Assembly (NCBI GenBank): GCA_002423545.1
Contig: DIWP01000056.1
Coordinates: 69,110 to 133,109 of the forward strand
DNA: 64,000 nucleotides
Reading direction: 5' to 3'
DNA from: Thermoleophilia bacterium UBA6103
Lineage (GTDB): Bacteria; Actinomycetota; Thermoleophilia; UBA2241
Positions 5,562 to 44,884 of this stretch are shown here, one piece after another. Positions within the stretch are counted from its first letter, which is position 1; every line of letters begins with the position of its first letter. The position numbers and the translations under genes are program-made. The notes below the pieces were generated by a model, which worked only from the letters and a program-made list of their open reading frames with translations, ran no database searches and had not been told where the DNA came from.

Positions 5562-6860
5562 TCAGCCCGTCTCGGAGAAGCGTGTCTGGGCGAGATGCGA
5601 GGAGAGGGATGGTCCCCGATTCGGCAGGCCGAGCTTGCGGCGCAGGTTGCGGCGATGGAACGCCACCGTGGCCGGCGAGATGAAGAGGGCGGCGGCGATC
5701 TCGGCCGAGCTCTTGCCGGCCCGGATGAGCGTCGCGATCTCGCGCTCGCGAGCCGTCAGGCCGCCGGACGCGCCTGCCAGTGCATCGAGCCGCTGGGCGA
5801 ACGGGCTCACCAGCTCGCGCAGGTTCTCGGCGATGGCGTCGACGTAGATGGCCTCCGGGGTCGTGGCGAGGTGCCGCTGCAGACGGTCGAGCAGCGGCAC
5901 GATGGTCGCCTCGACGTTGCTCACGATCGTGCGCTCCAGCTCGGCGCGGTCCTTGTTGCGCTGGTCGAGGATCACACGCAGCGCCGTGTTGGCGTCTTCC
6001 AGGGCGTCGGCCTGGCGTCGCAGCGACGCCTCCGACGCCTCGAGGGCCCGCTGCAGCGTGCGATGCTCGGTGAGATCGGTACCGAGGGCGAAGCAGGTGC
6101 GGCGGCCACCGTAGCGGCTGGGGACGAGGGTCAGGGCCAGGGCCCGCGGTGTATCGCCGATCGCCAGGTCGAGGTCGAAGGTGGCGCCCACCCGGCCGCG
6201 ATCGACTACCGCCCGCACGGCCGCCATCGCCTGTTCTCCCCACAGTGAGACGACCGTCTTGCGCAGGAGGCTGGTCCGGGTCATCTGCAGGAAGGCGGTC
6301 GCGGCGCCGTTGGCGTCGAGGAAGCGTCCGTCTTCGGCGATGTGGAACGCGGGGTTGACCACCTGCGCGAACAGCGTGTGGTAGAGCTCGGCCGACTCGC
6401 GCTGGGCGCGACTGGCGTCCTGCTCGGCGGCGATGTCGCGCACCGCGCCGATCATGTGCGACGGCCGCCCGGCCGCATCGACCAGCGTCAGGCCGCGTTC
6501 GCGGACCCAGACGTAGGTGTCGTCGCCGCGGCGGATACGATACTCGTCCTCGTAGACACCGGCCTCCCGGACCGCGCGGCGGGTGTTCTGCAGCGTCTTC
6601 TCCACGTCATCGGGATGCAGTCGCTCGGCGTATGCCTCAAAGGTGTCCGGCAGTCGCTCGACGGGGAGCCGGAAGACCTCTGCCATCTGCTCGGACATCT
6701 CCATGCTGTCGGTCTGAATGTCCCAGTCGTAGTAGGCGTCGAAGACGGCATCGACGAAGGCTCGCAGGCGCACGTCGCTGGAGATCTGCCGCGGTCCCGG
6801 TGGCCGCTCGGCAGCCGCTGTCGCGGTGATCGGTTCTGAATGTGAGGTATGGCCAGTCAT
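5562..6860 (-). CDS. PAS domain-containing LuxR-family transcriptional regulator
   Basis: 432 aa with two PAS-like segments, a coiled-coil, and a C-terminal LuxR HTH (LTAREREIATLIRAGKSSAEIAAALFISPATVAFHRRNLRRKLG). Confidence 0.7.
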   Translation of the reverse strand: MTGHTSHSEPITATAAAERPPGPRQISSDVRLRAFVDAVFDAYYDWDIQTDSMEMSEQMAEVFRLPVERLPDTFEAYAERLHPDDVEKTLQNTRRAVREAGVYEDEYRIRRGDDTYVWVRERGLTLVDAAGRPSHMIGAVRDIAAEQDASRAQRESAELYHTLFAQVVNPAFHIAEDGRFLDANGAATAFLQMTRTSLLRKTVVSLWGEQAMAAVRAVVDRGRVGATFDLDLAIGDTPRALALTLVPSRYGGRRTCFALGTDLTEHRTLQRALEASEASLRRQADALEDANTALRVILDQRNKDRAELERTIVSNVEATIVPLLDRLQRHLATTPEAIYVDAIAENLRELVSPFAQRLDALAGASGGLTAREREIATLIRAGKSSAEIAAALFISPATVAFHRRNLRRKLGLPNRGPSLSSHLAQTRFSETG

Positions 6861-7110
6861 AAAACTCGTAACAGACTAGCATGACCGGGAGCCTTGTGTC
6901 GCGTACACTGCAGACGTGCTTGTATGACATACGCCTCGATGCACAGAGACGAAGTCAGGCAGCATCCCCCCGGCCCCGTGGCTGTGACCCTCCCCCGACG
7001 GTCACAGGCGCGGGGCCGGCCCCGTCCCGGATCCCGGCTTCTCCATCCCGCGCCGTACCTTCCGCTCGCGGTGTTCCGTCCCGTCGCCGGCGTACCCTTG
7101 CCTGGAGCTG

Positions 7111-7362
7111 GTGAGCGACGCCGGTGGTGTGCGCCGAGAGACGGCAGCCGGGAGGAGCATGAGCGGTCTTGTCGAGTGTCCGTCCTGCGGGCGTTTGGTG
7201 TCGCGGGAGGCGAGCGCCTGTCCGTCCTGCGGGCAGCCGATCCGCAGAAGCGGCTGCCGCATCCTCGATGAAGCTCTCGGTGCCTTCCTCGGCTGTGCCG
7301 GCACGCTCTTCTCCCTGCTCGTCATCGCGTTCGTCATCGCGTTCCTGTTCGGTGGCTGCTGA
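7111..7362 (+). CDS. small zinc-ribbon membrane protein
   Basis: 83 aa with CPSCGRLVSREASACPSCGQ (CxxC…CxxC) followed by a hydrophobic helix LFSLLVIAFVIAFLF. The start may instead be the internal Met (MSGLVECP). Confidence 0.35.
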   Translation: MSDAGGVRRETAAGRSMSGLVECPSCGRLVSREASACPSCGQPIRRSGCRILDEALGAFLGCAGTLFSLLVIAFVIAFLFGGC

Positions 7363-7486
7363 GGTGACGCTGTCGGGGCGCCGTCCGCATGAGGCCGGCC
7401 CGCTGCGGGAATGGTGTCGGGTATGCGCAGCGGCGCGGCCGGCAGCGGCCGGTCGGCTCCGGAGACCCGGAAGCGGAGGTAAGCGT

Positions 7487-8663
7487 GATGGTCGGACTCC
7501 ACCGCAGCGATCTGGACAAGCTTCTCGAGACGCATGGGGGGCCGTGCGTCTCGGTCATCGTGCCGACGGAGCGAGCGGGTCGCGATGCTCGGCAGAACCC
7601 GTTGCGCTTCAAGCATGGGCTCGATGAGGCCGAGGAGCGGCTCGTCGCCGTCGGCCTGCGCGCACCGGAGGCGCGCGATCTGCTGCAGCCGGCACGCGAC
7701 CTGCTGGCCGACAGTCACTTCTGGAACCAGCAGTCCGATGGGCTGGCGTTGTTCCTGGCGCCCGGCTTCGAGCATCTGGTCAAGCTGCCGGTGGTGCCCG
7801 CGCAGCGAGTCGTGGTGGGCGAGCGTTTCCACGTGCGCCCGTTGCTGCCGGCCTTCTGGCCGGAGCAGGCTTTCTACCTGCTGGCTCTGAGCCAGAGCGA
7901 GGTGCGGCTCTTCGAAGGAGCGCGGTTCGGCGTGCGCGGGATCCCGCTGACCAACGTGCCGGAAGGGATCGAGGACGTCACACGCTTCGTCCAGGGTGAG
8001 ACGTCGCGGCAGATGCACAGTAGCGAACGTCGCGGCGCCGCCGTGGTGGGTGTCTCGCACGGTCACGGGGGCGTCAAGGACGATCGCGACGAACGGGTCT
8101 GGGAGTACATCCGGGCGGTCGCTCAGGGAGTCGGCGAGACGCTTCGTTCGGCCGGGAAGAGCAACGGAGCCCCTCTGGTCCTGGCCGGCGTCCAGTACCT
8201 GTGCGGCCTTTATCGGGAGGTCCACGGCGCTGCCGGCCCGGCTCACGCACCGATCCTCGACGAAGGCATCGAGGGCAATCCCGATCAGCTCAGCGAAGAG
8301 GAGCTGCATCTGCGTGCCTGGCCACTGGTGGCGCCGCTGGCGGAGGTGCAGGTGACGTCGGCTCTGGAGCGCTACCCGGAGGCGTACGGCCGCGGTGAAG
8401 CGCGGCGCGACGTCGAAGGTGTGCTGGTCGCTGCCCTGCAGGGTCGCGTCGAGACGCTGCTGCTCGCCGGCGACGCGATGCAGTGGGGACGGTTCGACGC
8501 GGACAAGGGCCGCGCCCGCCTGCACGATGCCTGGCGTCCCGGCGACGACGACCTCCTCGACCTGGCGGCCGCCCAGACGGTGCAGACCGGCGGCGTTGTC
8601 TACACGGTGGCCGCCGAGCAGATGCCCGAGGGTCGGCCGCTGGCGGCGCTGCTGCGGTACTGA
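7487..8663 (+). CDS. hypothetical protein, possible bacterial eRF1/Pelota-like (baeRF-type) fold
   Basis: The ORF track starts at 7389, but GGAGGTAAGCGTG-ATG gives a good RBS plus ATG at 7487 (MVGLHRSDL…). The C-terminal region (VLVAALQGRVETLLLAGDAMQWGRFD…GGVVYTVAAEQ…) is reminiscent of eRF1 domain-3-like proteins. Confidence 0.4.
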
Positions 8664-8754: not shown

Positions 8755-10572
8755 TCAGCGGCGTCTGAGCGGCGGGACGATGCGTAGCCAGATCGCGTTG
8801 GAGCGGCCGGCGGCGGTGCGGACGCGCACGCGGACCCGTCCGGCGGGGCGCAGCGGCACCTTGACGCGGATGCGTCCATCACGCCATGAAGCGTAGACGT
8901 GCGCCCGGCGTGAGCCGAAGAAGACCGACGCCTTCCGTTTGGCGTGCGATGCGGCCGCTGCCGCCCGGCTGCGGCCGAAACGTATGCCGCGGAGGGTCAT
9001 CCAGCGTCCGGGGCGCACCCGCGCGGCGCCGAGCGACCGCAGGCGTGGTGGGCGCGCCGCGTCCGGGTCGGGCTGTGGCGCCGGCTCGGCGCCGTACTCG
9101 AAGGCGCCGATGTCGAAGCCTGCACCGGCCGGGCGCCGGCCGCCGGCCAGATCGAACGCCGGGGCGCCGTTCGCCGTGCCGGCGTCGATGAGCGGGCTGC
9201 CGGCCCGCGGCCGGAAGTCGCCACGGGTGCCCCACGCCGGCCGTGTGAAGCGCGGCGGCGCCGAGAGGTTGCCGGCGCCCAGGGCGCCGGCCCGGAGCTG
9301 GGCCGCCGTGTAGTCGCGGCCGTTGGCGTGGACCTGCACGTCGGCCCCCGGCCGGTGGAAGTCGCAGTGGTCGATGTGGGCGGTCACGGCGTCGCCCAGG
9401 TACACCTCGCCGTGACCGTTGGCGATCAGGGTGTTGCGGATCAGTACCGTCATCGGCTCCGGCTCGCCGTACTGCATGTAGACGGGGTATGCGTGTCGTG
9501 CCGGGTCGTCGTGGACCGTCACGTTGACGATGGTGAACGTCGCTCCCGGCTCGCCGCCCATGACGATGCCGGCCCATGGCGAGGCGCCGCCGACGCCGTC
9601 GCCCATGCCGTAGATGAGCGTGTTCTCGACTCGGCCGCCGGCCCACAGCTTGACGCCGTCGCAGCTGTTGTTGGCGACCGTGCAGCACCGGATGGTGGTC
9701 GCCGCCGCCTTTGAGTCGAGGCCGTCGCCGCGGTTGTGCTCGGCCACCGTGTCTTCGATGAGGATCGGCCCGGCCGACGGCTCGATGCCGAAGCCGTCGG
9801 GTCGGTCGTAAGAGCCGGGCCCGGGGCCGCCCCGGTAGTAGTGGCCGGAGTAGCCGAGGTAGCAGTCGCGGACGGTCACGTTCCGGTTGCCGCCGTGCCG
9901 TCCCTCCGGTCCGCCGATGCAGCCGAAGCCGCAGTGGGAGAAGCGACAACGCTCGACGAGCAGATGGCGCACGTCGCCGATGTTCAGCGCCATCTCGTCG
10001 ATGTGGTGGATCGAGAGGTCGCGGAGGACGAGGTGGTCGACCGGGTCGCCGGCGGCGTCGATGCCGCCGCGGAAGCGCGTGCCGCCGTCCGCGGTGATCT
10101 CGAGGTTCTCGAGCGTCACGTAGCTGGTGCCGGAGACATCGACGGCCGCGAAGAGGTCGTCGCGCCCGGCCAGGACCGGCCGCTGCCCGGCCTCGCCGAC
10201 GATGCGGGTCGGGGCCGCGGCCGTGCCCGACGGCGGCGTGATCATGTCGTACCAGAAGGTGCGCAGCACGTAGCGGCCGCGCAGGATGACCAGCGTGTCG
10301 CCGCCGTGCAGGCGCTTTGAGGCCGGTCCGGGACTGCGCCAGGGCCTGGCCCGGCTGCCGGGTGCACCGTCGTCACCCGACGGCGAGACGAAGTAGGTGG
10401 CGGCGGCGGCTGTGGCCGGCCCGGCGATGCCGGAGGGCAGGCCGCCGAAGAGGCACCAGGTGAGCACCGCCGTCGTCGCGGCGAGGGCGACGAACGACCC
10501 GCGGGTCGGCCTCGAACGTGCGCCGTCTGCGGCCCGCCGCCGACGGCCGCGCAGCGTGCGCCTCAACGTCAT
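8755..10572 (-). CDS. secreted right-handed parallel beta-helix (pectate-lyase fold) protein with C-terminal Ig-like/TIG domain
   Basis: 605 aa with an N-terminal signal-like helix. Repeated beta-helix turns (…NIGDVRHLLVERCRFSHCGFGCIGG…NVTVRDCYL…) and a C-terminal Ig-like tail. Confidence 0.55.
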   Translation of the reverse strand: MTLRRTLRGRRRRAADGARSRPTRGSFVALAATTAVLTWCLFGGLPSGIAGPATAAAATYFVSPSGDDGAPGSRARPWRSPGPASKRLHGGDTLVILRGRYVLRTFWYDMITPPSGTAAAPTRIVGEAGQRPVLAGRDDLFAAVDVSGTSYVTLENLEITADGGTRFRGGIDAAGDPVDHLVLRDLSIHHIDEMALNIGDVRHLLVERCRFSHCGFGCIGGPEGRHGGNRNVTVRDCYLGYSGHYYRGGPGPGSYDRPDGFGIEPSAGPILIEDTVAEHNRGDGLDSKAAATTIRCCTVANNSCDGVKLWAGGRVENTLIYGMGDGVGGASPWAGIVMGGEPGATFTIVNVTVHDDPARHAYPVYMQYGEPEPMTVLIRNTLIANGHGEVYLGDAVTAHIDHCDFHRPGADVQVHANGRDYTAAQLRAGALGAGNLSAPPRFTRPAWGTRGDFRPRAGSPLIDAGTANGAPAFDLAGGRRPAGAGFDIGAFEYGAEPAPQPDPDAARPPRLRSLGAARVRPGRWMTLRGIRFGRSRAAAAASHAKRKASVFFGSRRAHVYASWRDGRIRVKVPLRPAGRVRVRVRTAAGRSNAIWLRIVPPLRRR

Positions 10573-38346: not shown

Positions 38347-39603
38347 GTGATGGAGGGACCTGTGGAGGCCTGGTTCGACCGGATCATCGAGCGGCGCGGC
38401 AGCGCCAGCTTCAAGTGGGACACGTATCCGCCGGATGTACTGCCGGCCTTCGTCGCCGACATGGACTTCGTCTCGCCGCCGGCCGTCCTGGAGGCGCTGC
38501 ATCACCGCGTCGATCACGGCGTCTTCGGCTATGCGCGCGTCTCGGACTCTCTGACCGAGGCGGTCTGCGAGCACGCGCGCTGCGAACACGGGTGGCACAT
38601 CGATCCCGACTGGCTCGTCTTTCTGCCCGGCGTCTGGTCGGCCCTGGGACTCACCGTGCGAGCGTTCACGCGGCGCGGCGAAGGCGTGCTGATGGTGACC
38701 CCGATCTACCACCCCTTCCTGGAGATCGTCGCCGACCAGGGCCGGCGCCTCGACGCCGTGCCGGCGGTGCTGCGCAACGGCCGCTGGCGCCTGCCGCTGG
38801 ACGAGCTGGAGGCGGCGATCCGCCAGGATACGCGGGTACTCCTCTTCAGCAGCCCGCACAATCCCCTGGGCCGCGCCTTCGACCGTGACGAGATCGCCGC
38901 CGTGGTCGATCTCTGCCGGCGGCGCGACCTGGTCTTCTGCTCCGATGAGGTGCACTGCGATCTGATCCTCGATCCGGTGCCGCACGTTCCCAGCCTGACG
39001 ATCCCCGGCGCCGATGAGGTCACCCTGGCCTTCCTCTCGCCGAGCAAGACGTACAACCTTCCGGGCCTGCAGCTGGCATGGGGCGTGATCCCCGACGAGC
39101 GGCTGCGGCGGCGCTTCCGCGAAGCCGCCGGCGGTCTGGTCGAGCTGGACATGCCGGGCGTGCTCGGCATGGCCGCCGCCGAGGCCGCCTACCGGCAGGG
39201 CGGCGAGTGGCGGGCGGCGCTGCTCGAGTACCTGCGCGGCAACGCCGCCCTCATCGAACGCTTCGTCGCCGACGAGCTGCCCGGCGTGACCACCACGCAT
39301 GTGGAGGCGACCTATCTGGCCTGGCTCGACGCGCGCCGGGCGCCGGCCGTCGTCGCCGCGCAGGCCGCGTCCGCGACGCCCGCGGTCGTTCCCGAGGCGC
39401 CGTCCGGCGTGCCGGGCGACGCCGCAGCGCGCGTGCCGTCTCCGTACGAGCTCTGCCTGGCCGCCGGCGTGGCCGTCTCGGACGGCGCCGCGTTCGGCGG
39501 CCCCGGCTTCGTGCGTGTGAACCTCGGCTGTCCGCGCGCGACGCTCCAGGAGGTCCTGAGGCGCGTGCGCCGCGGGCTGACCGGCCTGGCGGGGTCGCCG
39601 TGA
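38347..39603 (+). CDS. PLP-dependent C-S lyase (MalY/PatB-type cystathionine beta-lyase family, aminotransferase class I/II fold)
   Basis: …KWDTYPPDVLPAFVADMDF…SPHNPLGRAF…SPSKTYNLPGLQ… are MalY/PatB hallmarks. 418 aa. Confidence 0.7.
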   Translation: MMEGPVEAWFDRIIERRGSASFKWDTYPPDVLPAFVADMDFVSPPAVLEALHHRVDHGVFGYARVSDSLTEAVCEHARCEHGWHIDPDWLVFLPGVWSALGLTVRAFTRRGEGVLMVTPIYHPFLEIVADQGRRLDAVPAVLRNGRWRLPLDELEAAIRQDTRVLLFSSPHNPLGRAFDRDEIAAVVDLCRRRDLVFCSDEVHCDLILDPVPHVPSLTIPGADEVTLAFLSPSKTYNLPGLQLAWGVIPDERLRRRFREAAGGLVELDMPGVLGMAAAEAAYRQGGEWRAALLEYLRGNAALIERFVADELPGVTTTHVEATYLAWLDARRAPAVVAAQAASATPAVVPEAPSGVPGDAAARVPSPYELCLAAGVAVSDGAAFGGPGFVRVNLGCPRATLQEVLRRVRRGLTGLAGSP

Positions 39604-41024
39604 GCGGCGGCTCGCGGCCGGCCGACCCGCTCGGTCTTCAGCCAGATGAGATGCGGGCGTTGGGCTACTGGGTCGTCGACCGGGTGGTCGGACATTTGGA
39701 GGGTATCGCCGAGAGCCCCGCGGTCGTGACGGGTACACCCGACGAGCTGCGCGCCGCGCTCGGCGGGCCGCCGCCCGAGGACCCCGGCGATCCGGCGGCG
39801 GCTCTCCGCACGCTGGCCGACGTGGCGCTGGCTCACATGCAGCACGGCGAGCATCCGCGCAACTTCGCCCGCGTGCCGGGGCCGTCTTCGTATGCTGGCG
39901 TCCTCGGCGAGTGGCTGGCCACCGGCTTCAATGCCATCGCCGCTTCGTGGACCGGCGGATCCGGTCCGGCGACCGTCGAGCTGGTGGTGATCGACTGGCT
40001 GCGTCAGCTGCTGGGGTTGCCCGACACAACCGAGGGCATCCTGGTCAGCGGGGGTTCGTTGGCCAGCGTCACCGCCCTGGTGGTGGCCCGCAACGAGGTC
40101 GGCGCCGGGACCGTCTACCTCTCCGACCAGACCCACTCCTCGATCGTCCGCGGCCTCTTCGCGCTGGGCTTCCCGGGCTCGGACGTCCGTGTCCTGACTT
40201 CGGACGGGCGTCAGCGGCTGTCCGTGGAGGCGCTGCGGGAGGCGCTGGATGCGGACCGGACGGCCGGCCGGCGGCCGGCCATCGTGATCGCCAACGCCGG
40301 CACCACGAACACCGGTGCCGTGGACCCCCTGCCCGAGCTGGCCGGGATCTGTGCCGCCGAAGGCCTTTGGCTCCATGTCGACGGCGCCTACGGTGCCCCG
40401 GCCGCTTTGTGCGACGCCGGCCGCCGCCTGCTGGCCGGCATCGAGCGGGCCGACTCTCTGGTGCTGGACCCGCACAAGTGGCTCTTCCAGCCCTACGATC
40501 TCGGCTGCTTGCTGGTCCGGCGGCACGGTGCCCTGGAACGTGCCTTTCGCACCACGCCGGACTACCTGGCCGACGTGACCGGGGTCGACGACGAGGTCGA
40601 CCTGCGCGACCGCGGGCTGGAGCTCAGCCGACGGGGTCGTGGCGTGAAGCTCTGGCTGACGTTCCGCACCTATGGAGTGGTGCGCATCCGGGCCGCCATC
40701 GCCCACGGTATCGGGCTGGCCGAGCGGGCGGAGCGTCTGGTGGCCGCCGACCCGGACTGGCGGGTCGTGACGCCGGCTCAGTTGGGGATCGTGACCTTCA
40801 CCCTGCGCCGCCCGGCCGCCGGCCGTGATGCCTACGACGAGCTGGCCGCCAGGGCGGCCGGCGTGGCGGCCGACGGTTCCGCGCATCTCACGACCACCCG
40901 GGTATCGGGGACGCCTGTGCTGCGACTCTGCACGATCAACCCGAGGACGACGCCGGACGACATCACGCAGACGCTCGCCGGCCTCGGTGTGGGGTCGTGC
41001 ATTCGGCGGGGCGCGGCGGGGTAG
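39600..41024 (+). CDS. PLP-dependent group II amino-acid decarboxylase
   Basis: The GTG start overlaps the upstream TGA (GTGA), indicating translational coupling. It carries …SGGSLASVTALVVARN…HVDGAYG…LVLDPHKWLFQPYD… with the PLP-lysine motif. Terminates with TAG. Confidence 0.7.
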   Translation: MSGGSRPADPLGLQPDEMRALGYWVVDRVVGHLEGIAESPAVVTGTPDELRAALGGPPPEDPGDPAAALRTLADVALAHMQHGEHPRNFARVPGPSSYAGVLGEWLATGFNAIAASWTGGSGPATVELVVIDWLRQLLGLPDTTEGILVSGGSLASVTALVVARNEVGAGTVYLSDQTHSSIVRGLFALGFPGSDVRVLTSDGRQRLSVEALREALDADRTAGRRPAIVIANAGTTNTGAVDPLPELAGICAAEGLWLHVDGAYGAPAALCDAGRRLLAGIERADSLVLDPHKWLFQPYDLGCLLVRRHGALERAFRTTPDYLADVTGVDDEVDLRDRGLELSRRGRGVKLWLTFRTYGVVRIRAAIAHGIGLAERAERLVAADPDWRVVTPAQLGIVTFTLRRPAAGRDAYDELAARAAGVAADGSAHLTTTRVSGTPVLRLCTINPRTTPDDITQTLAGLGVGSCIRRGAAG

Positions 41025-41075
41025 GGGAGAGCGGCACGCTCACGCGGATCCGGGTCTTGAGGCCCTTCTCGCTTT

Positions 41076-41140
41076 GGCAGCCCACTCCGGCAGCGGCGGG
41101 AACCGGTCGGGCCCGCGAGCATCCCGCACGCGGTCGTTCG
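41076..41140. repeat. ~65-bp imperfect direct repeat, copy A (copy B at 42192..42256 inside the 3' end of the tsaA-like gene)
   Basis: Shared core CCGGGCCCGCGAGCATCCCGCACGCGGTCGTT plus upstream similarity (GCAGCCCACTCCGGCAGCGGCGGGAACC / GCAGGCCCATTCCGCCATCAGTGGGAACC). The two copies bracket the VapBC cassette. Confidence 0.55.
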
Positions 41141-41169
41141 ATCGAGCTCCGCGAGCTCGTCCGGCGGTC

Positions 41170-41601
41170 TCAGCTCGCGACGAACGGATCGACGATCCGC
41201 ACGGGGCTCTCGAGCCTGAGCAGGTGCTTATCTTCGGTGTAGAGGACGTCGGCGCCGCAGGACTCGGCGGCCGTCAGGATCAGTGCGTCCCAGATGGGGG
41301 CACCGCACTCTTCGACTCGGCCCATGGCCGCGAGCACCATGTCGACGGACGGAGCCACGATGTGAGCGCTGCGGAGCTGCTGCGCGAGACCGCGAGCTGC
41401 GGCCGGTGACAACGGGACCTCAAGGCGCCGCGTCGTGGTCCAGAAGAACTCCTGGAAGACCTGGGTGCTCAGGGCGAGAGAGCCGGCGCCGAGATGATCG
41501 AGGACGAGCGCTCGGGCGATGTCCCGCTTGCGGGGGGCATCATGGTCGACCATGTAGACGAGCACGTTCGAATCGAGGAACGCTCGTGCGACAGCGCTCA
41601 T
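41170..41601 (-). CDS. vapC: type II toxin VapC (PIN domain ribonuclease)
   Basis: MSAVARAFLDSNVLVYMVD…ALILTAAESCGADVLYTEDKH… is a PIN-domain acidic-residue pattern. 143 aa. Confidence 0.75.
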   Translation of the reverse strand: MSAVARAFLDSNVLVYMVDHDAPRKRDIARALVLDHLGAGSLALSTQVFQEFFWTTTRRLEVPLSPAAARGLAQQLRSAHIVAPSVDMVLAAMGRVEECGAPIWDALILTAAESCGADVLYTEDKHLLRLESPVRIVDPFVAS

Positions 41602-41604
41602 CGC

Positions 41605-41874
41605 TCAGTCCCGGCAGGTGTCGTAGATCTCCTCGCGAGAGAACGTGATGCCACCGGAGTGTGCCGGCGCCTCATCGAAGAGCTGTTTGATGCGGGTCAC
41701 GGCCAGCTTCCGGCGTGCTTCTTCGTCGACGTAGTCCTGCAGACAGCGCTGCAGGTAGGCGTTGACGGAATCACCCTCCTGGAGCGCTCGGATCCGGGCG
41801 CGCCGCAGGATCTCGACGTCGACGGTGATGGTCAGGTTCGTCATACCGTTCCTGGCGGTAGGCTCGGCCTTCAT
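41605..41874 (-). CDS. vapB: type II antitoxin (ribbon-helix-helix, VapB-like)
   Basis: Small ORF immediately upstream of vapC, separated by 3 nt. NLTITVDVEILRRARIRALQEGDSVNAYLQRCLQDYV is an RHH/CopG-like motif. Start ambiguous (MKAEP or MTNLT). Confidence 0.55.
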   Translation of the reverse strand: MKAEPTARNGMTNLTITVDVEILRRARIRALQEGDSVNAYLQRCLQDYVDEEARRKLAVTRIKQLFDEAPAHSGGITFSREEIYDTCRD

Positions 41875-42145
41875 CACGTCCTCCCATGGCGGTCGATCAC
41901 GGGGTCGGGTCTGTGCCGCAGGCATCCGCGTCGCTGGACCGTGTTCAAGCGGGCGGTCAGCACGAATACAGTGTAGCACGAAACTCGTGTTCAAGGTCGC
42001 CGCGATGCCTGGCGGCGGATCCGCCTGACATGGTGCATCTGGGGCGCGATCAGCTGCTGCGGCTCGACGAATGCCCTTGCCCGGCCGCGCCTCGGGGTGG
42101 GTCAGGGGTCCGCCGAAGCGTCGAGGTGCCGCGCTTCGGGGTGGG

Positions 42146-42715
42146 TCAGGGATCCGCCGAAGCTCCCGATTCGCCGCGCCCCTCCTCCTCGCAGGCCCAT
42201 TCCGCCATCAGTGGGAACCAGCCGGGCCCGCGAGCATCCCGCACGCGGTCGTTGGAGGGGAGATAGGGCTTGAGGTCGAGGACCGGGGTACCGTCGGCGG
42301 CGTCGAGGTCGTCGACGTGCAGGATGCCGGTCGCCGCATCGACGGAGCGAAGGCGACAGACCGTGACCGCGATGGGGTTGGGACGGGCTGGCGAGCGGGT
42401 CGCGAAGACCCCCATCAGGTGCTCCGGCGCCGGGCGCGGGTGGACGCGCAGGGTGGCGCGGTCGGTGTCGTTGTCGTGACCCTGTGCCCACCACAGCACC
42501 AGGACGTGACTGAACTGCTCCAGGTGGAGCAGGGCGGCGCGGTAGGCCTCCGCGATGTGCAACTCGGCGGGGCCGCGGTCGGTGTCCGTAGCTGAGTTTG
42601 CGAAGTCGCCTGCGGTAGAGGAGGGTCGCCGCAGGACGCGGCCGACGGGCACGAGCCTCAGGGGCTCCGTGCCACGTGGCTGCGAGTCCGAGCTGTGGGC
42701 GTCGAGCGGCGTCAT
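42146..42715 (-). CDS. TsaA/TrmO-family protein (second paralog)
   Basis: …LRLVPVGRV…HLEQFSHVLVLWW…RSPARPNPIAVTVCRL…DGTPVLDLKPY… are TsaA-like conserved motifs. The last ~12 codons are encoded by repeat copy B. Confidence 0.6.
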   Translation of the reverse strand: MTPLDAHSSDSQPRGTEPLRLVPVGRVLRRPSSTAGDFANSATDTDRGPAELHIAEAYRAALLHLEQFSHVLVLWWAQGHDNDTDRATLRVHPRPAPEHLMGVFATRSPARPNPIAVTVCRLRSVDAATGILHVDDLDAADGTPVLDLKPYLPSNDRVRDARGPGWFPLMAEWACEEEGRGESGASADP

Positions 42716-42795: not shown

Positions 42796-43257
42796 TCAGC
42801 GGGCGCCGGCCTCGCGCAGCGCGTCGTCGATGGCCGTCACGGCGCCGAAGTCACGCTCGCCTTCGACGGCGATGGCGAGCGGCCCCCACGTCCACAGATG
42901 GACGAGCGAGCGCTCGAAAGGTCGCCAGGCGACGACGTCGATGGCGTTGTCGCGGGTCGCGCGGCTGTCGAACTGCACGACGAAGACGGAGGCGCTCTCA
43001 TCGCCGTCCTCATGGCCGCTGCGCACGCTCAGGAAGAGGCCCTCGACGAAGCCGGGGACGTCTCGCCAGACGATCGGCGTCGCCTCGACCTGCAGGCCGA
43101 CATCCTCCAGCACCCGGACCACCGACGCCGGCGTCAGCGGCTCGCCGTCGGGTCCGGTGGCATCGAACGCGGAGCGCCCGCAGCCGCCGACCGGCAGCAG
43201 CGTCGCGACGAGCGTGACAAGGGCCAGCGAGGCGAGCAGAGCGATCCGGCGCGTCAC
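42796..43257 (-). CDS. lipoprotein (hypothetical)
   Basis: GTG start, signal peptide and lipobox (LLPVGGCG). 153 aa. Confidence 0.45.
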   Translation of the reverse strand: MTRRIALLASLALVTLVATLLPVGGCGRSAFDATGPDGEPLTPASVVRVLEDVGLQVEATPIVWRDVPGFVEGLFLSVRSGHEDGDESASVFVVQFDSRATRDNAIDVVAWRPFERSLVHLWTWGPLAIAVEGERDFGAVTAIDDALREAGAR

Positions 43258-43261
43258 GGCC

Positions 43262-44884
43262 TCATACCTCCGTCTCTCCGGTCGACGTCAGCGGCTCCGG
43301 CCGGCCGTCGCCTGCCCCGGCGAGCGCGCCGGCCGCACTGCTCGCGGCGGCTCCACTGTTCGCGCCGGCTTCACCGTTCGCGCCGGCCTCACCGTCGGCG
43401 TCCCCGGACCCGCGCCCGGCGGCCATCGCCGCTCGCTTGTCCTTCGTCAGCCGGGTCATGATGAACGGTGGCGCCAGAAGGATGAGGAAGCCGACGAGCA
43501 TGGTACCGATGTACTCCCAGGTGCCTCCGAAGTGGGTCTGGCTGGGTGGCAGCAGAGAGATGATGAGCGTGGCGCCGCAGGAGAGGGCGCCCAGGCCGCC
43601 GAGGATCCAGACGCCGACCTTGCCGCCGGGCGCCCGGAACGGTCGCGGCGTGTCGGGCTGGCTGTAGCGCAGCTTGATGAACGACGCGAAGACCATCACG
43701 TACATCAGGCAGATCAGCAGGGTCGTCATCGCCGAGAGCATCCAGTACACGGTGTCGACGCCGGGGACCAGCAGGTAGGCCGTGGCGATCACGGTGCCGA
43801 TGCCGGCCTGCATGAGCAGCACGCCGCTCGGCGCCTTGCGCTTGTTCACCCTGGCGAACACCGCCGGCATGAAGCCCTCGTCGACCGCCACCTTGAGGCC
43901 GCTCGACGGGCCGCCGAGCCATGTCTGCAGGCAGGCGATGCCGCCCAGCGCCACCATGAGCGCCGTGGGAATGACCATCCAGCCCATGCCGAAGTCGTCG
44001 AAGAAGAGGCTGAAGGCCTGCATGAGGCCGGCCGACAGGCTGAGCTGCTTCTCCGGCACCACCCAGGCGACCGCCAGCGTGCCGATGACGGCGAGGACGA
44101 AGATGACGGCGGCCGAGATGAACATGGCCGCCGGCAGGTCGCGCTGCGGCTTGCGGACGTTGGCGGCGTGGAAGCCGATCATCTCCATGCCGGCGAACAT
44201 CAGGATGGCATTGCCGGCCAGCGCGATGGTGCCGAAGCTGAACTCCGGCAGCAGGGCGTCGAAGGTGAGCGGCGGCGTCTCCATCGGCTCGCCGCCGGCG
44301 ATGTACACGATGCCCAGGGCGCTGATGATGAGCGCCGGGATGATGGTGCCGATCACCACGCCGAAGGTCCCCAGGGCGTTGCCGGCGCGCTCGCCGAAGA
44401 GGGCCACGACTGTGGTGCCCCAGAAGATGGTCATCATCGTCGCGAACATGAAGACGTTGTTCGCCGCCAGATCGGGGGAGATAGCGAAGGCCAGCGTGGA
44501 GCCGATGAACGCCAGCACGGCCGGATACCACACCACGATCGAGGCCCACTCGGCGTAGATGGCCACAAAGCCGGAACTGTCGCCGAACGCCTCGCGGACC
44601 CAGCCGTACAGGCCGCCGCCCTTCTGCCAGGTGGTGGCCAGCTCGACGCCGGCGAAGCCGATGGGGATGAGGAAGCAGACGCCGCCGAGCACGTACCAGC
44701 CGACCGACGACCAGCCGTAGACGGCCATGGCGGGCAGGTTGCGCAGGCCCAGCACGGCGGCGACGTTGATCATCGCCAGGACGAAGATGCCGGTCTTCCT
44801 GACATCAGCGCCCGCCACGTCCGCCTCCTTGCCGGATCGACGTCCCCTCTCGGCTGCGGTCTGACCGCGTGCCTGCGACGGCAT
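43262..44884 (-). CDS. APC-family amino acid/polyamine permease (glutamate:GABA-antiporter-like)
   Basis: 540 aa with 12 TM helices of the APC fold. The C-terminal tail has a GEAGAN repeat. Confidence 0.75.
   Translation of the reverse strand: MPSQARGQTAAERGRRSGKEADVAGADVRKTGIFVLAMINVAAVLGLRNLPAMAVYGWSSVGWYVLGGVCFLIPIGFAGVELATTWQKGGGLYGWVREAFGDSSGFVAIYAEWASIVVWYPAVLAFIGSTLAFAISPDLAANNVFMFATMMTIFWGTTVVALFGERAGNALGTFGVVIGTIIPALIISALGIVYIAGGEPMETPPLTFDALLPEFSFGTIALAGNAILMFAGMEMIGFHAANVRKPQRDLPAAMFISAAVIFVLAVIGTLAVAWVVPEKQLSLSAGLMQAFSLFFDDFGMGWMVIPTALMVALGGIACLQTWLGGPSSGLKVAVDEGFMPAVFARVNKRKAPSGVLLMQAGIGTVIATAYLLVPGVDTVYWMLSAMTTLLICLMYVMVFASFIKLRYSQPDTPRPFRAPGGKVGVWILGGLGALSCGATLIISLLPPSQTHFGGTWEYIGTMLVGFLILLAPPFIMTRLTKDKRAAMAAGRGSGDADGEAGANGEAGANSGAAASSAAGALAGAGDGRPEPLTSTGETEV

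Follow-up and report, generated by a model that had tools for sequence, protein, structure and literature searches.

A displaced tsaA 3' end beside a vapBC module in a Thermoleophilia bacterium as a probable scar of decarboxylase gene import

In the 64,000-nt stretch of Thermoleophilia bacterium UBA6103 analysed here (contig DIWP01000056.1, positions 69,110 to 133,109, hereafter the window), a predicted vapBC toxin-antitoxin module is framed by two copies of a short direct repeat. One of them (copy B) belongs to the 3' part of an intact tsaA/trmO gene, and the other (copy A) lies between vapC and a gene for a pyridoxal 5'-phosphate (PLP)-dependent decarboxylase. Copy A is probably a donor-derived tsaA tail, left as a scar when the decarboxylase gene was imported by homology-facilitated illegitimate recombination (HFIR), a reading to which a probability of roughly two in three is given. 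The anatomy of the repeat, the boundaries of the insertion or deletion (indel), a microhomology at one joint, incongruent alleles and a decarboxylase remnant in a relative are direct observations and are described below.

Copy A, the decarboxylase gene and the boundaries of their block

A repeat search of the window returned one direct-repeat pair, at 41080-41141 and 42195-42256, with 62 nt at 87% identity and a start-to-start distance of 1,115 nt, in agreement with the repeat of ~65 bp described in the initial annotation. The placement of copy A just past the decarboxylase gene also held, as it starts 56 nt beyond the decarboxylase stop (41024). Copy B (42195-42256, minus strand) covers codons S154-A174 of the resident tsaA and is therefore inside the TsaA open reading frame (ORF) as annotated, but it does not form the final codons, since 15 more follow. 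vapB, vapC and a tandem repeat do lie between the copies; the period of the latter is 44 nt, not ~27 nt as previously given.

An exact 30-nt core of the repeat, at 41109-41138 in copy A and 42224-42253 in copy B, matches nowhere else in the window when up to 3 mismatches are allowed, and none of 100 shuffles gave two matches. Among the 62 fetched loci, the core was found solely at tsaA tails and in copy A. It is a conserved coding stretch (SNDRVRDARGP), identical or nearly so in the tsaA tails of the relatives L001 and L009, and a 31-mer of the core with two positions left free recurs in these orthologous tails, so that coding conservation explains the exact core sufficiently. With two copies in 64 kb, both consisting of tsaA coding sequence, the repeat does not resemble dispersed elements of the miniature inverted-repeat transposable element (MITE) or repetitive extragenic palindromic (REP) kind.

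The homology between copy A and tsaA tails reaches ~100 nt, beyond the 62-nt repeat. Read in the tsaA frame, 41040-41138 is an open tail, NDRVRDARGPDRFPPLPEWAAKARRASRPGSA followed by a stop codon, and by translation the feature (41040-41141, minus strand) is a pseudogene fragment made up of 33 codons of a tsaA 3' end and a stop of its own. It has no start codon, its frame differs from that of vapC, and it is related to a remnant in L001 by a compensated -1/+1 frameshift. A read-through fusion of vapC into copy A was considered and rejected, given the different frame and the offset of 34 nt from the vapC stop. Copy A thus appears to be a dead tsaA 3'-end fragment with no detectable function.

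The relatives' contigs are metagenome loci found by exact-protein look-up and typed by tblastn. L004 and L005 are identical to the window and show the same arrangement, with both copy A and the decarboxylase gene. In L057, L058 and L059 (TsaA 88.6% identical, flanks 95-99% at the nucleotide level), tsaA-vapB-vapC is followed by an 82-nt spacer and the aminotransferase gene; L062 (VapC 92%) has the same layout, and in L006 (TsaA 82%) 50 nt separate vapC from the aminotransferase stop. All these single-copy loci keep vapBC at the same site behind an intact tsaA, with neither copy A nor the decarboxylase gene. The initial annotation had taken vapBC as inserted cargo and proposed comparison with related genomes lacking the insertion; single-copy relatives were indeed found, yet those named above carry vapBC, in contradiction to that proposal. 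L010 (TsaA 73%) has vapB after tsaA, and its contig stops inside vapB.

The decarboxylase gene (39600-41024, plus strand, start codon uncertain; PF00282, E=7e-60) is present in the window and in L001 (93% amino acid identity) and absent from L057, L006, L062, L007 and L009, and its next-nearest homologues after L001 are ~72% identical and located in unrelated contexts. L001 and L002 (TsaA 87%) possess the decarboxylase gene without the 62-nt repeat. Their order is vapC, a 50-nt spacer, a 41-nt aminotransferase-end remnant, a shortened tsaA-tail remnant and the decarboxylase gene. The tail remnant of L001 begins at CCGGTT, has a 9-nt deletion and reads PEWVCQSEKASRPGSA before its stop. The 41-nt remnant (L001 9688-9728) is of the L006/L057-type aminotransferase 3' end including the stop codon, showing that a vapBC-aminotransferase arrangement preceded the decarboxylase gene there. 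A single-protein scan of a species-representative genome collection with TsaA gave no match and an alignment-based scan gave only relatives at <=51% identity, placing the window lineage outside that collection; a metagenome scan with the TsaA alignment returned only the known comparison contigs and distant relatives.

The tsaA gene in front of vapBC has its native end. The resident 3' tail, ...SNDRVRDARGPGWFPLMAEWACEEEGRGESGASADP and stop, contains copy B, and the copy B tail (...WFPLMAEWACEEEGRG...) fits the TsaA consensus ...WFPxxPEWACE... in an alignment of homologues. This type of tail is seen in relatives with and without vapBC downstream, including L007 and L008 (TsaA 54% identical), where the stop codons of tsaA and the aminotransferase gene abut with nothing between, and L009 (TsaA 66%), where a 61-nt spacer without a gene separates the two. 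As the native-type tail occurs in relatives lacking a downstream vapBC, the module of the window sits behind a complete native tsaA, and vapBC appears not to have interrupted tsaA and regenerated its end.

Comparison of the window with L057 by blastn located the difference precisely. The two are colinear from 48000 down to 41134 and resume at 39564, so that the window has 1,569 nt (39565-41133) where L057 has 78 nt; this is the only large indel, and the flanks are 95-99% identical. The block consists of copy A, the decarboxylase gene and the final 39 nt of the aminotransferase gene. On its vapC side, a native post-vapC spacer (41142-41169, minus strand) was recognized by alignment as common to relatives without copy A, and colinearity of the window with L057, L058 and L062 extends from vapC as far as ...GACGAGCTCGCGGAG..CG.TCGAACGA. 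Past TCGAACGA, L057 and L062 go on with G... in a spacer common to L057, L058 and L062, and the window goes on with CCGCGTG..., where CCGCGTGCGGGAT... is tsaA tail. The tsaA tail of L009 reads TCGAACGACCG, with a TCG serine codon where resident copy B has TCC. Since the spacer and the L009-type tail both carry TCGAACGA, the joint (41134-41141, minus strand, from the blastn end at 41134 and the alignment) is an 8-nt microhomology between the resident spacer and a donor-type tail. In L001, the joint is elsewhere, between the 41-nt aminotransferase remnant and CCGGTT, with ~3 nt of overlap.

The post-vapC spacers of L057, L006 and L001 were also considered as decayed tsaA or decarboxylase remnants and rejected, as local alignments did not rise above shuffles. 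A borderline match of TCGAGCGACCGC in L006 to the tsaA SNDR site proved to be the aminotransferase-proximal end of a common spacer, also present in L062.

At the opposite end of the block, the 3' part of the aminotransferase gene (38347-39603, plus strand) is a donor-type allele. Window and L057 are 76-92% identical in this gene, versus 95-99% in the flanks. Over its last 165 nt the window is 92% identical to L001, 86% to L009, 80.5% to L006 and 79% to L057. The ends thus fall into two allele groups, one of the window, L001 and L009 (86-92%) and one of L057 and L006 (90%), with 78-84% between groups. This grouping conflicts with TsaA and the flanks, which put the window with L057.

Copy A shows a comparable affinity. 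Of its first 59 nt, 54 agree with the L009 tail, against 52 each with copy B and the L001 tail and 51 with the L057 tail, and the resident tails are closer to each other (57/59 for window and L001, 54/59 for window and L057). It retains ancestral codons that the resident tail has lost, namely FPPxPEW and the TCG serine codon; its PEW/GAG states are those of L009, L006 and L010, whereas the window, L001 and L057 all have a derived MAEW in their resident tails. The distal part of copy A (…CQSEKASRPGSA and stop) is unlike any resident tail and is common to the L001 remnant beside the decarboxylase gene. These features suggest that copy A was not derived from the resident tsaA tail and stands nearer to the distant-lineage allele of L009.

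In L009, the 61-nt spacer together with the antisense of the last tsaA codons constitutes a 5' decarboxylase remnant matching window positions 39613-39685 (63/72 nt; local score 52, reached by 0/500 shuffles, which averaged 9.1 and did not exceed 14.5), and tblastn against decarboxylase residues 1-29 gave E=2e-6. The final ~7 tsaA codons of L009 (ETRPPTR and stop) are the antisense of this remnant, which points to a deletion that fused tsaA and the decarboxylase remnant. The remnant implies that the L009 lineage once had tsaA convergent with the decarboxylase gene and, behind it in the same orientation, the aminotransferase gene. That ancestral layout would be the donor arrangement needed for a tsaA tail joined to a decarboxylase 3' end.

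A probable course of events and its alternatives

The recipient would have been arranged as tsaA, vapB, vapC and spacer facing a convergent aminotransferase gene, as still seen in L057, L062 and L006, and the donor would have been a related lineage in which tsaA faced the decarboxylase and aminotransferase genes. One end of the incoming DNA may have been resolved by homologous recombination in or beyond the aminotransferase gene, and the other by illegitimate joining at TCGAACGA, common to the recipient's post-vapC spacer and the donor tsaA tail. As the outcome, ~1.57 kb comprising the donor tsaA tail, the decarboxylase gene and the donor-type aminotransferase end would have replaced 78 nt. 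The resident tsaA and vapBC would be bystanders, vapBC being bracketed because the imported fragment happened to end inside the tsaA tail. The locus displays what is expected of an HFIR scar, with an insertion coupled to a deletion, a microhomology within 3-10 bp and a homologous anchor carrying donor-type alleles. Which way the DNA moved, how it entered the cell and whether RecA took part are inferred. L001 would represent an independent import into a vapBC-aminotransferase background, keeping vapC, the 50-nt spacer and the remnants ahead of the decarboxylase gene. The different joints and spacer backgrounds (L057/L062-like in the window, L006-like in L001) slightly favour two imports, and two separate imports are slightly more parsimonious than one import followed by loss and remodelling.

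Several points weigh against this course of events. The right joint lies inside homologous aminotransferase sequence, and the exact crossover is diffuse. Searches with TsaA and with decarboxylase homologues found no contig with a full tsaA convergent with the decarboxylase gene. The copy A comparisons rest on 59 nt, and the L009 contig is 1.2 kb long. In L009 (1-1242), vapB-vapC is located upstream of tsaA, with the vapC stop overlapping the tsaA start (ATGA), an order opposite to that in the window, which suggests that an older tsaA/vapBC rearrangement happened somewhere in the group. Mosaicism is strong in the region, where L057 and the window are only 61-70% identical in vapBC, which makes tree-based parsimony weak. 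An opposite history could still fit, with a window-type ancestor and subsequent loss of copy A and the decarboxylase gene in L057, L062 and L006.

A related alternative, unlikely but the most serious of those weighed, is an ancestral duplication in which the event that placed vapBC behind tsaA also duplicated the tail, either by insertion into the tail or by tandem duplication and partial deletion from an L009-like vapBC-tsaA order; the window would keep the scar, the relatives would have lost the block and L001 would have been remodelled. The vapB-vapC-tsaA order of L009 does show that tsaA directly behind vapC is real in the group, the post-vapC spacers all share their first ~28 nt, in L057 and L062 through TCGAACGA, and gaining twice differs from gaining once with loss by about one event. 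However, past TCGAACGA the spacers of L057 and L062 run on for 47 and 32 nt, respectively, and the aminotransferase ends that follow are divergent; as these stretches lack a counterpart in the window, they were not made by simple deletion. Their spacers also hold no significant decarboxylase or tsaA remnant, the 41-nt remnant of L001 puts the vapBC-aminotransferase arrangement before the decarboxylase gene, and the copy A joints of the window and L001 differ.

The initial annotation viewed the repeat as an attL/attR-like duplication, which would require vapBC to be a mobile cassette moved by a trans-acting site-specific recombinase, with the tsaA 3' end as attB. An exact 30-nt direct core that flanks only vapBC, the GC content of vapBC below that of its flanks and VapC homologues in unrelated contexts (L060, L061) would fit such a cassette, but relatives with only one copy of the repeat have vapBC in this position too, and the repeat accompanies the decarboxylase gene, its copies failing to bound the segment that is present or absent (39565-41133). 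In addition, the core is conserved coding sequence, copy A does not come from the resident tail, the joint is a microhomology with native spacer, as commonly left by illegitimate recombination and unlike an att site, and L060 has no match to the core. The absence of a nearby recombinase gene, already stated in the initial annotation, was borne out: over ~8 kb to each side the called genes include none, and no recombinase family appears among their Pfam matches (identical contig L004). With no integrase nearby, repeats away from the polymorphism edges and a core of conserved coding sequence, the cassette is highly improbable. The recombinational origin of the repeat stands insofar as an intact tsaA is accompanied by a displaced 3'-end copy as a scar, and the attL/attR part does not.

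That slippage or unequal crossing-over recently duplicated the resident tsaA tail on the spot is equally improbable. Gene-end tandem units do exist at the locus (the 44-nt tsaA unit in 1-3 copies and a 43-nt vapC unit in L062), but copy A and copy B differ at 7/59 positions, against 2/59 between the resident tails of the window and L001, copy A keeps ancestral states common to L009, L006 and L010, and its distal part is unlike resident tails and common to the L001 remnant.

The resident genes and the plasticity of the locus

The intact tsaA/trmO gene (42146-42715, minus strand, 189 aa) matches PF01980 (E=1.7e-28, 99.6 bits), and its product scores above the TIGR00104 equivalog cut-off (105.3 versus 93.25 bits). 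By family-model match it is a predicted member of the TrmO/TsaA tRNA m6t6A37 methyltransferase family. The tandem duplication at its end (42084-42163, minus strand; two units with a 44-nt period by repeat search) has two 36-nt cores, 42084-42119 and 42128-42163, that are 94% identical, and the unit includes the tsaA stop codon. Two copies are present in the window and L057 (6560-6650), three in L001 (8521-8675) and one in L006 (~610-660), and each extra unit re-encodes the final tsaA codons (...ASADP and stop). The RNA fold of the 44-nt unit is no better than that of shuffles (z=0.47).

The vapB-like antitoxin gene (41605-41874, minus strand, 89 aa) lies 3 nt upstream of vapC; its product has a weak ribbon-helix-helix match below the cut-off (PF22513, E=0.009) and no NCBIfam match. 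The vapC gene (41170-41601, minus strand, 143 aa) encodes a predicted PIN-domain toxin (PF01850, 37.6 bits versus a cut-off of 23.6) with a match to TIGR00028 (E=4e-6) under the cut-off of that model. Both genes are kept together in relatives. A PIN toxin gene behind a small, closely spaced, predicted antitoxin gene fits the type II toxin-antitoxin layout. Upstream of vapB, the stretch GAACACGAGTTTCGTGCTACACTGTATTCGTGC with the palindrome CACGAnnnTCGTG (41955-41995, minus strand) is conserved in the window, L001, L006, L010, L057 and L061, and the surrounding spacer is only ~75% identical; it may serve as the vapBC promoter/operator, though no sigma-70 consensus match was found in it. An attC site, a terminator and a non-coding RNA were examined as candidates and rejected. 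No inverted repeat flanks the vapBC unit, there is no Rfam match at E<=1 and no terminator or promoter consensus, and the fold z-scores of the copy A region and the 44-nt units are 0.4-1.3.

The vapBC segment (41200-42000) has a GC content of 63-67%, versus 70-75% in neighbouring genes, and the composition of the decarboxylase block is not distinct from its surroundings. The window (41300-41750) and L057 (7000-7450) are only 61-70% identical over the 3' half of vapB and the initial two-thirds of vapC, compared with >90% at the vapC 3' end and 95-99% in the flanking genes, and the VapC of L057 is closer to that of L009 (74%) than to that of the window (68%), which indicates a probable allelic replacement inside the toxin-antitoxin module. 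VapBC homologues were also observed away from tsaA. In L061 (1-1194; VapC 69%) the module directly follows a gene resembling a 153-aa ORF of the window, with no tsaA, and is followed by low-GC unrelated sequence; in L060 (5743-6459; VapC 60%) it lies among unrelated genes on a 1.57-Mb contig. The VapBC family thus seems to move, over longer time scales. In L062 (769-886), the vapC 3' end including its stop is repeated 2.8 times with a 43-nt period and 94% matches, a second ~44-nt gene-end duplication at the locus whose sequence is unrelated to the tsaA unit.

In the window, the aminotransferase stop overlaps a possible GTG start of the decarboxylase gene, and sources give 457 or 474 aa for the product. 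In L001, the stop TAG of the decarboxylase gene (41022-41024) is CAG (9762-9800), which makes the ORF 12 codons longer, and the extension overlaps the antisense of the tsaA-tail remnant. Three 15-nt tandem units (GCGGATCGGCCGGCC) lie between the aminotransferase and decarboxylase genes of L001 (11192-11247, versus window 39600-39650). On the other side of tsaA, an amino-acid permease gene (43262-44884, minus strand) and a gene for the 153-aa hypothetical protein (42796-43257, minus strand) separate ubiB from tsaA in the window, L001 and L057. Both (42796-44884) are absent from the syntenic L007 locus (6279-8001), so this pair is probably another insertion beside tsaA. Near the 3' end of the permease gene, 18-nt tandem repeats (43325-43396) encode GEAGAN-type repeats, and the window differs in length from L001 and L057 by 36 nt here.

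The locus is notably plastic. Remnants of tsaA tails (window, L001), of the aminotransferase gene (L001) and of the decarboxylase gene (L009), the ~44-nt tandem duplications of tsaA and vapC ends and the occurrence of vapBC on either side of tsaA could be taken as products of a directed hotspot at the junction of tsaA, vapBC and the convergent aminotransferase gene, which would repeatedly duplicate or capture gene 3' ends. If so, a specific mechanism linked with convergent transcription or with the toxin-antitoxin module would be at work rather than unrelated accidents, and candidates would be template switching at stalled forks or a portable recombination anchor formed by the conserved 3' end of vapC and its spacer. 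Such a hotspot is improbable.

Comparison with known systems

A toxin-antitoxin pair framed by a repeat of its neighbour's 3' end resembles an att-flanked mobile cassette, and the present case calls for caution, as comparison at the population level assigns the repeat to another event, most likely one-sided homologous recombination that brought in a decarboxylase gene. Similar to integrase islands at gene 3' ends, the locus has a direct 3'-end repeat, an intact gene and accessory genes between the copies. Unlike such islands, it has no integrase, its copies, at 87% identity, come from different alleles, and its joint is a microhomology. Toxin-antitoxin cassettes of integrons likewise place a small toxin-antitoxin unit between short repeats, but the window has neither IntI nor an attC-like imperfect palindrome, and its repeat is the coding sequence of a neighbouring gene.

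The closest parallel is HFIR itself, which is marked by 3-10 bp of microhomology and by insertions accompanied by deletions (PMC3240628), and whose insertion-deletion scars have been described in Streptococcus pneumoniae, Acinetobacter baylyi, Pseudomonas stutzeri and E. coli (PMC3240628). As in those cases, one end would be homologous and the other lies at a microhomology, here of 8 nt and within the described range, and a foreign insertion of ~1.6 kb is coupled to resident loss without mobile-element genes. The present case is deduced from natural metagenome haplotypes and not from experiments. Its donor would moreover be a relative with the same neighbourhood, so that part of a gene already present in the recipient comes in with the foreign end and gives rise to a direct repeat. 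The locus would be a new instance of a well-known type of event, revealing no new mobile element or mechanism, and a clean natural example, from an uncultivated high-GC lineage, of HFIR adding an operon gene and leaving a datable pseudogene fragment.

HFIR has also been proposed for the orphaned 3' gene fragments in effector-immunity arrays of Rhs, contact-dependent inhibition (CDI) and type VI secretion systems (T6SS) (PMC5361080). Copy A is similar to these orphans in being a displaced gene 3' end downstream of recombined DNA that repeats a conserved part. In contrast to them, it stems from a housekeeping tRNA-modification gene and not from a polymorphic toxin, and it is a fragment of 33 codons with no immunity gene after it, no array and no sign of selection.

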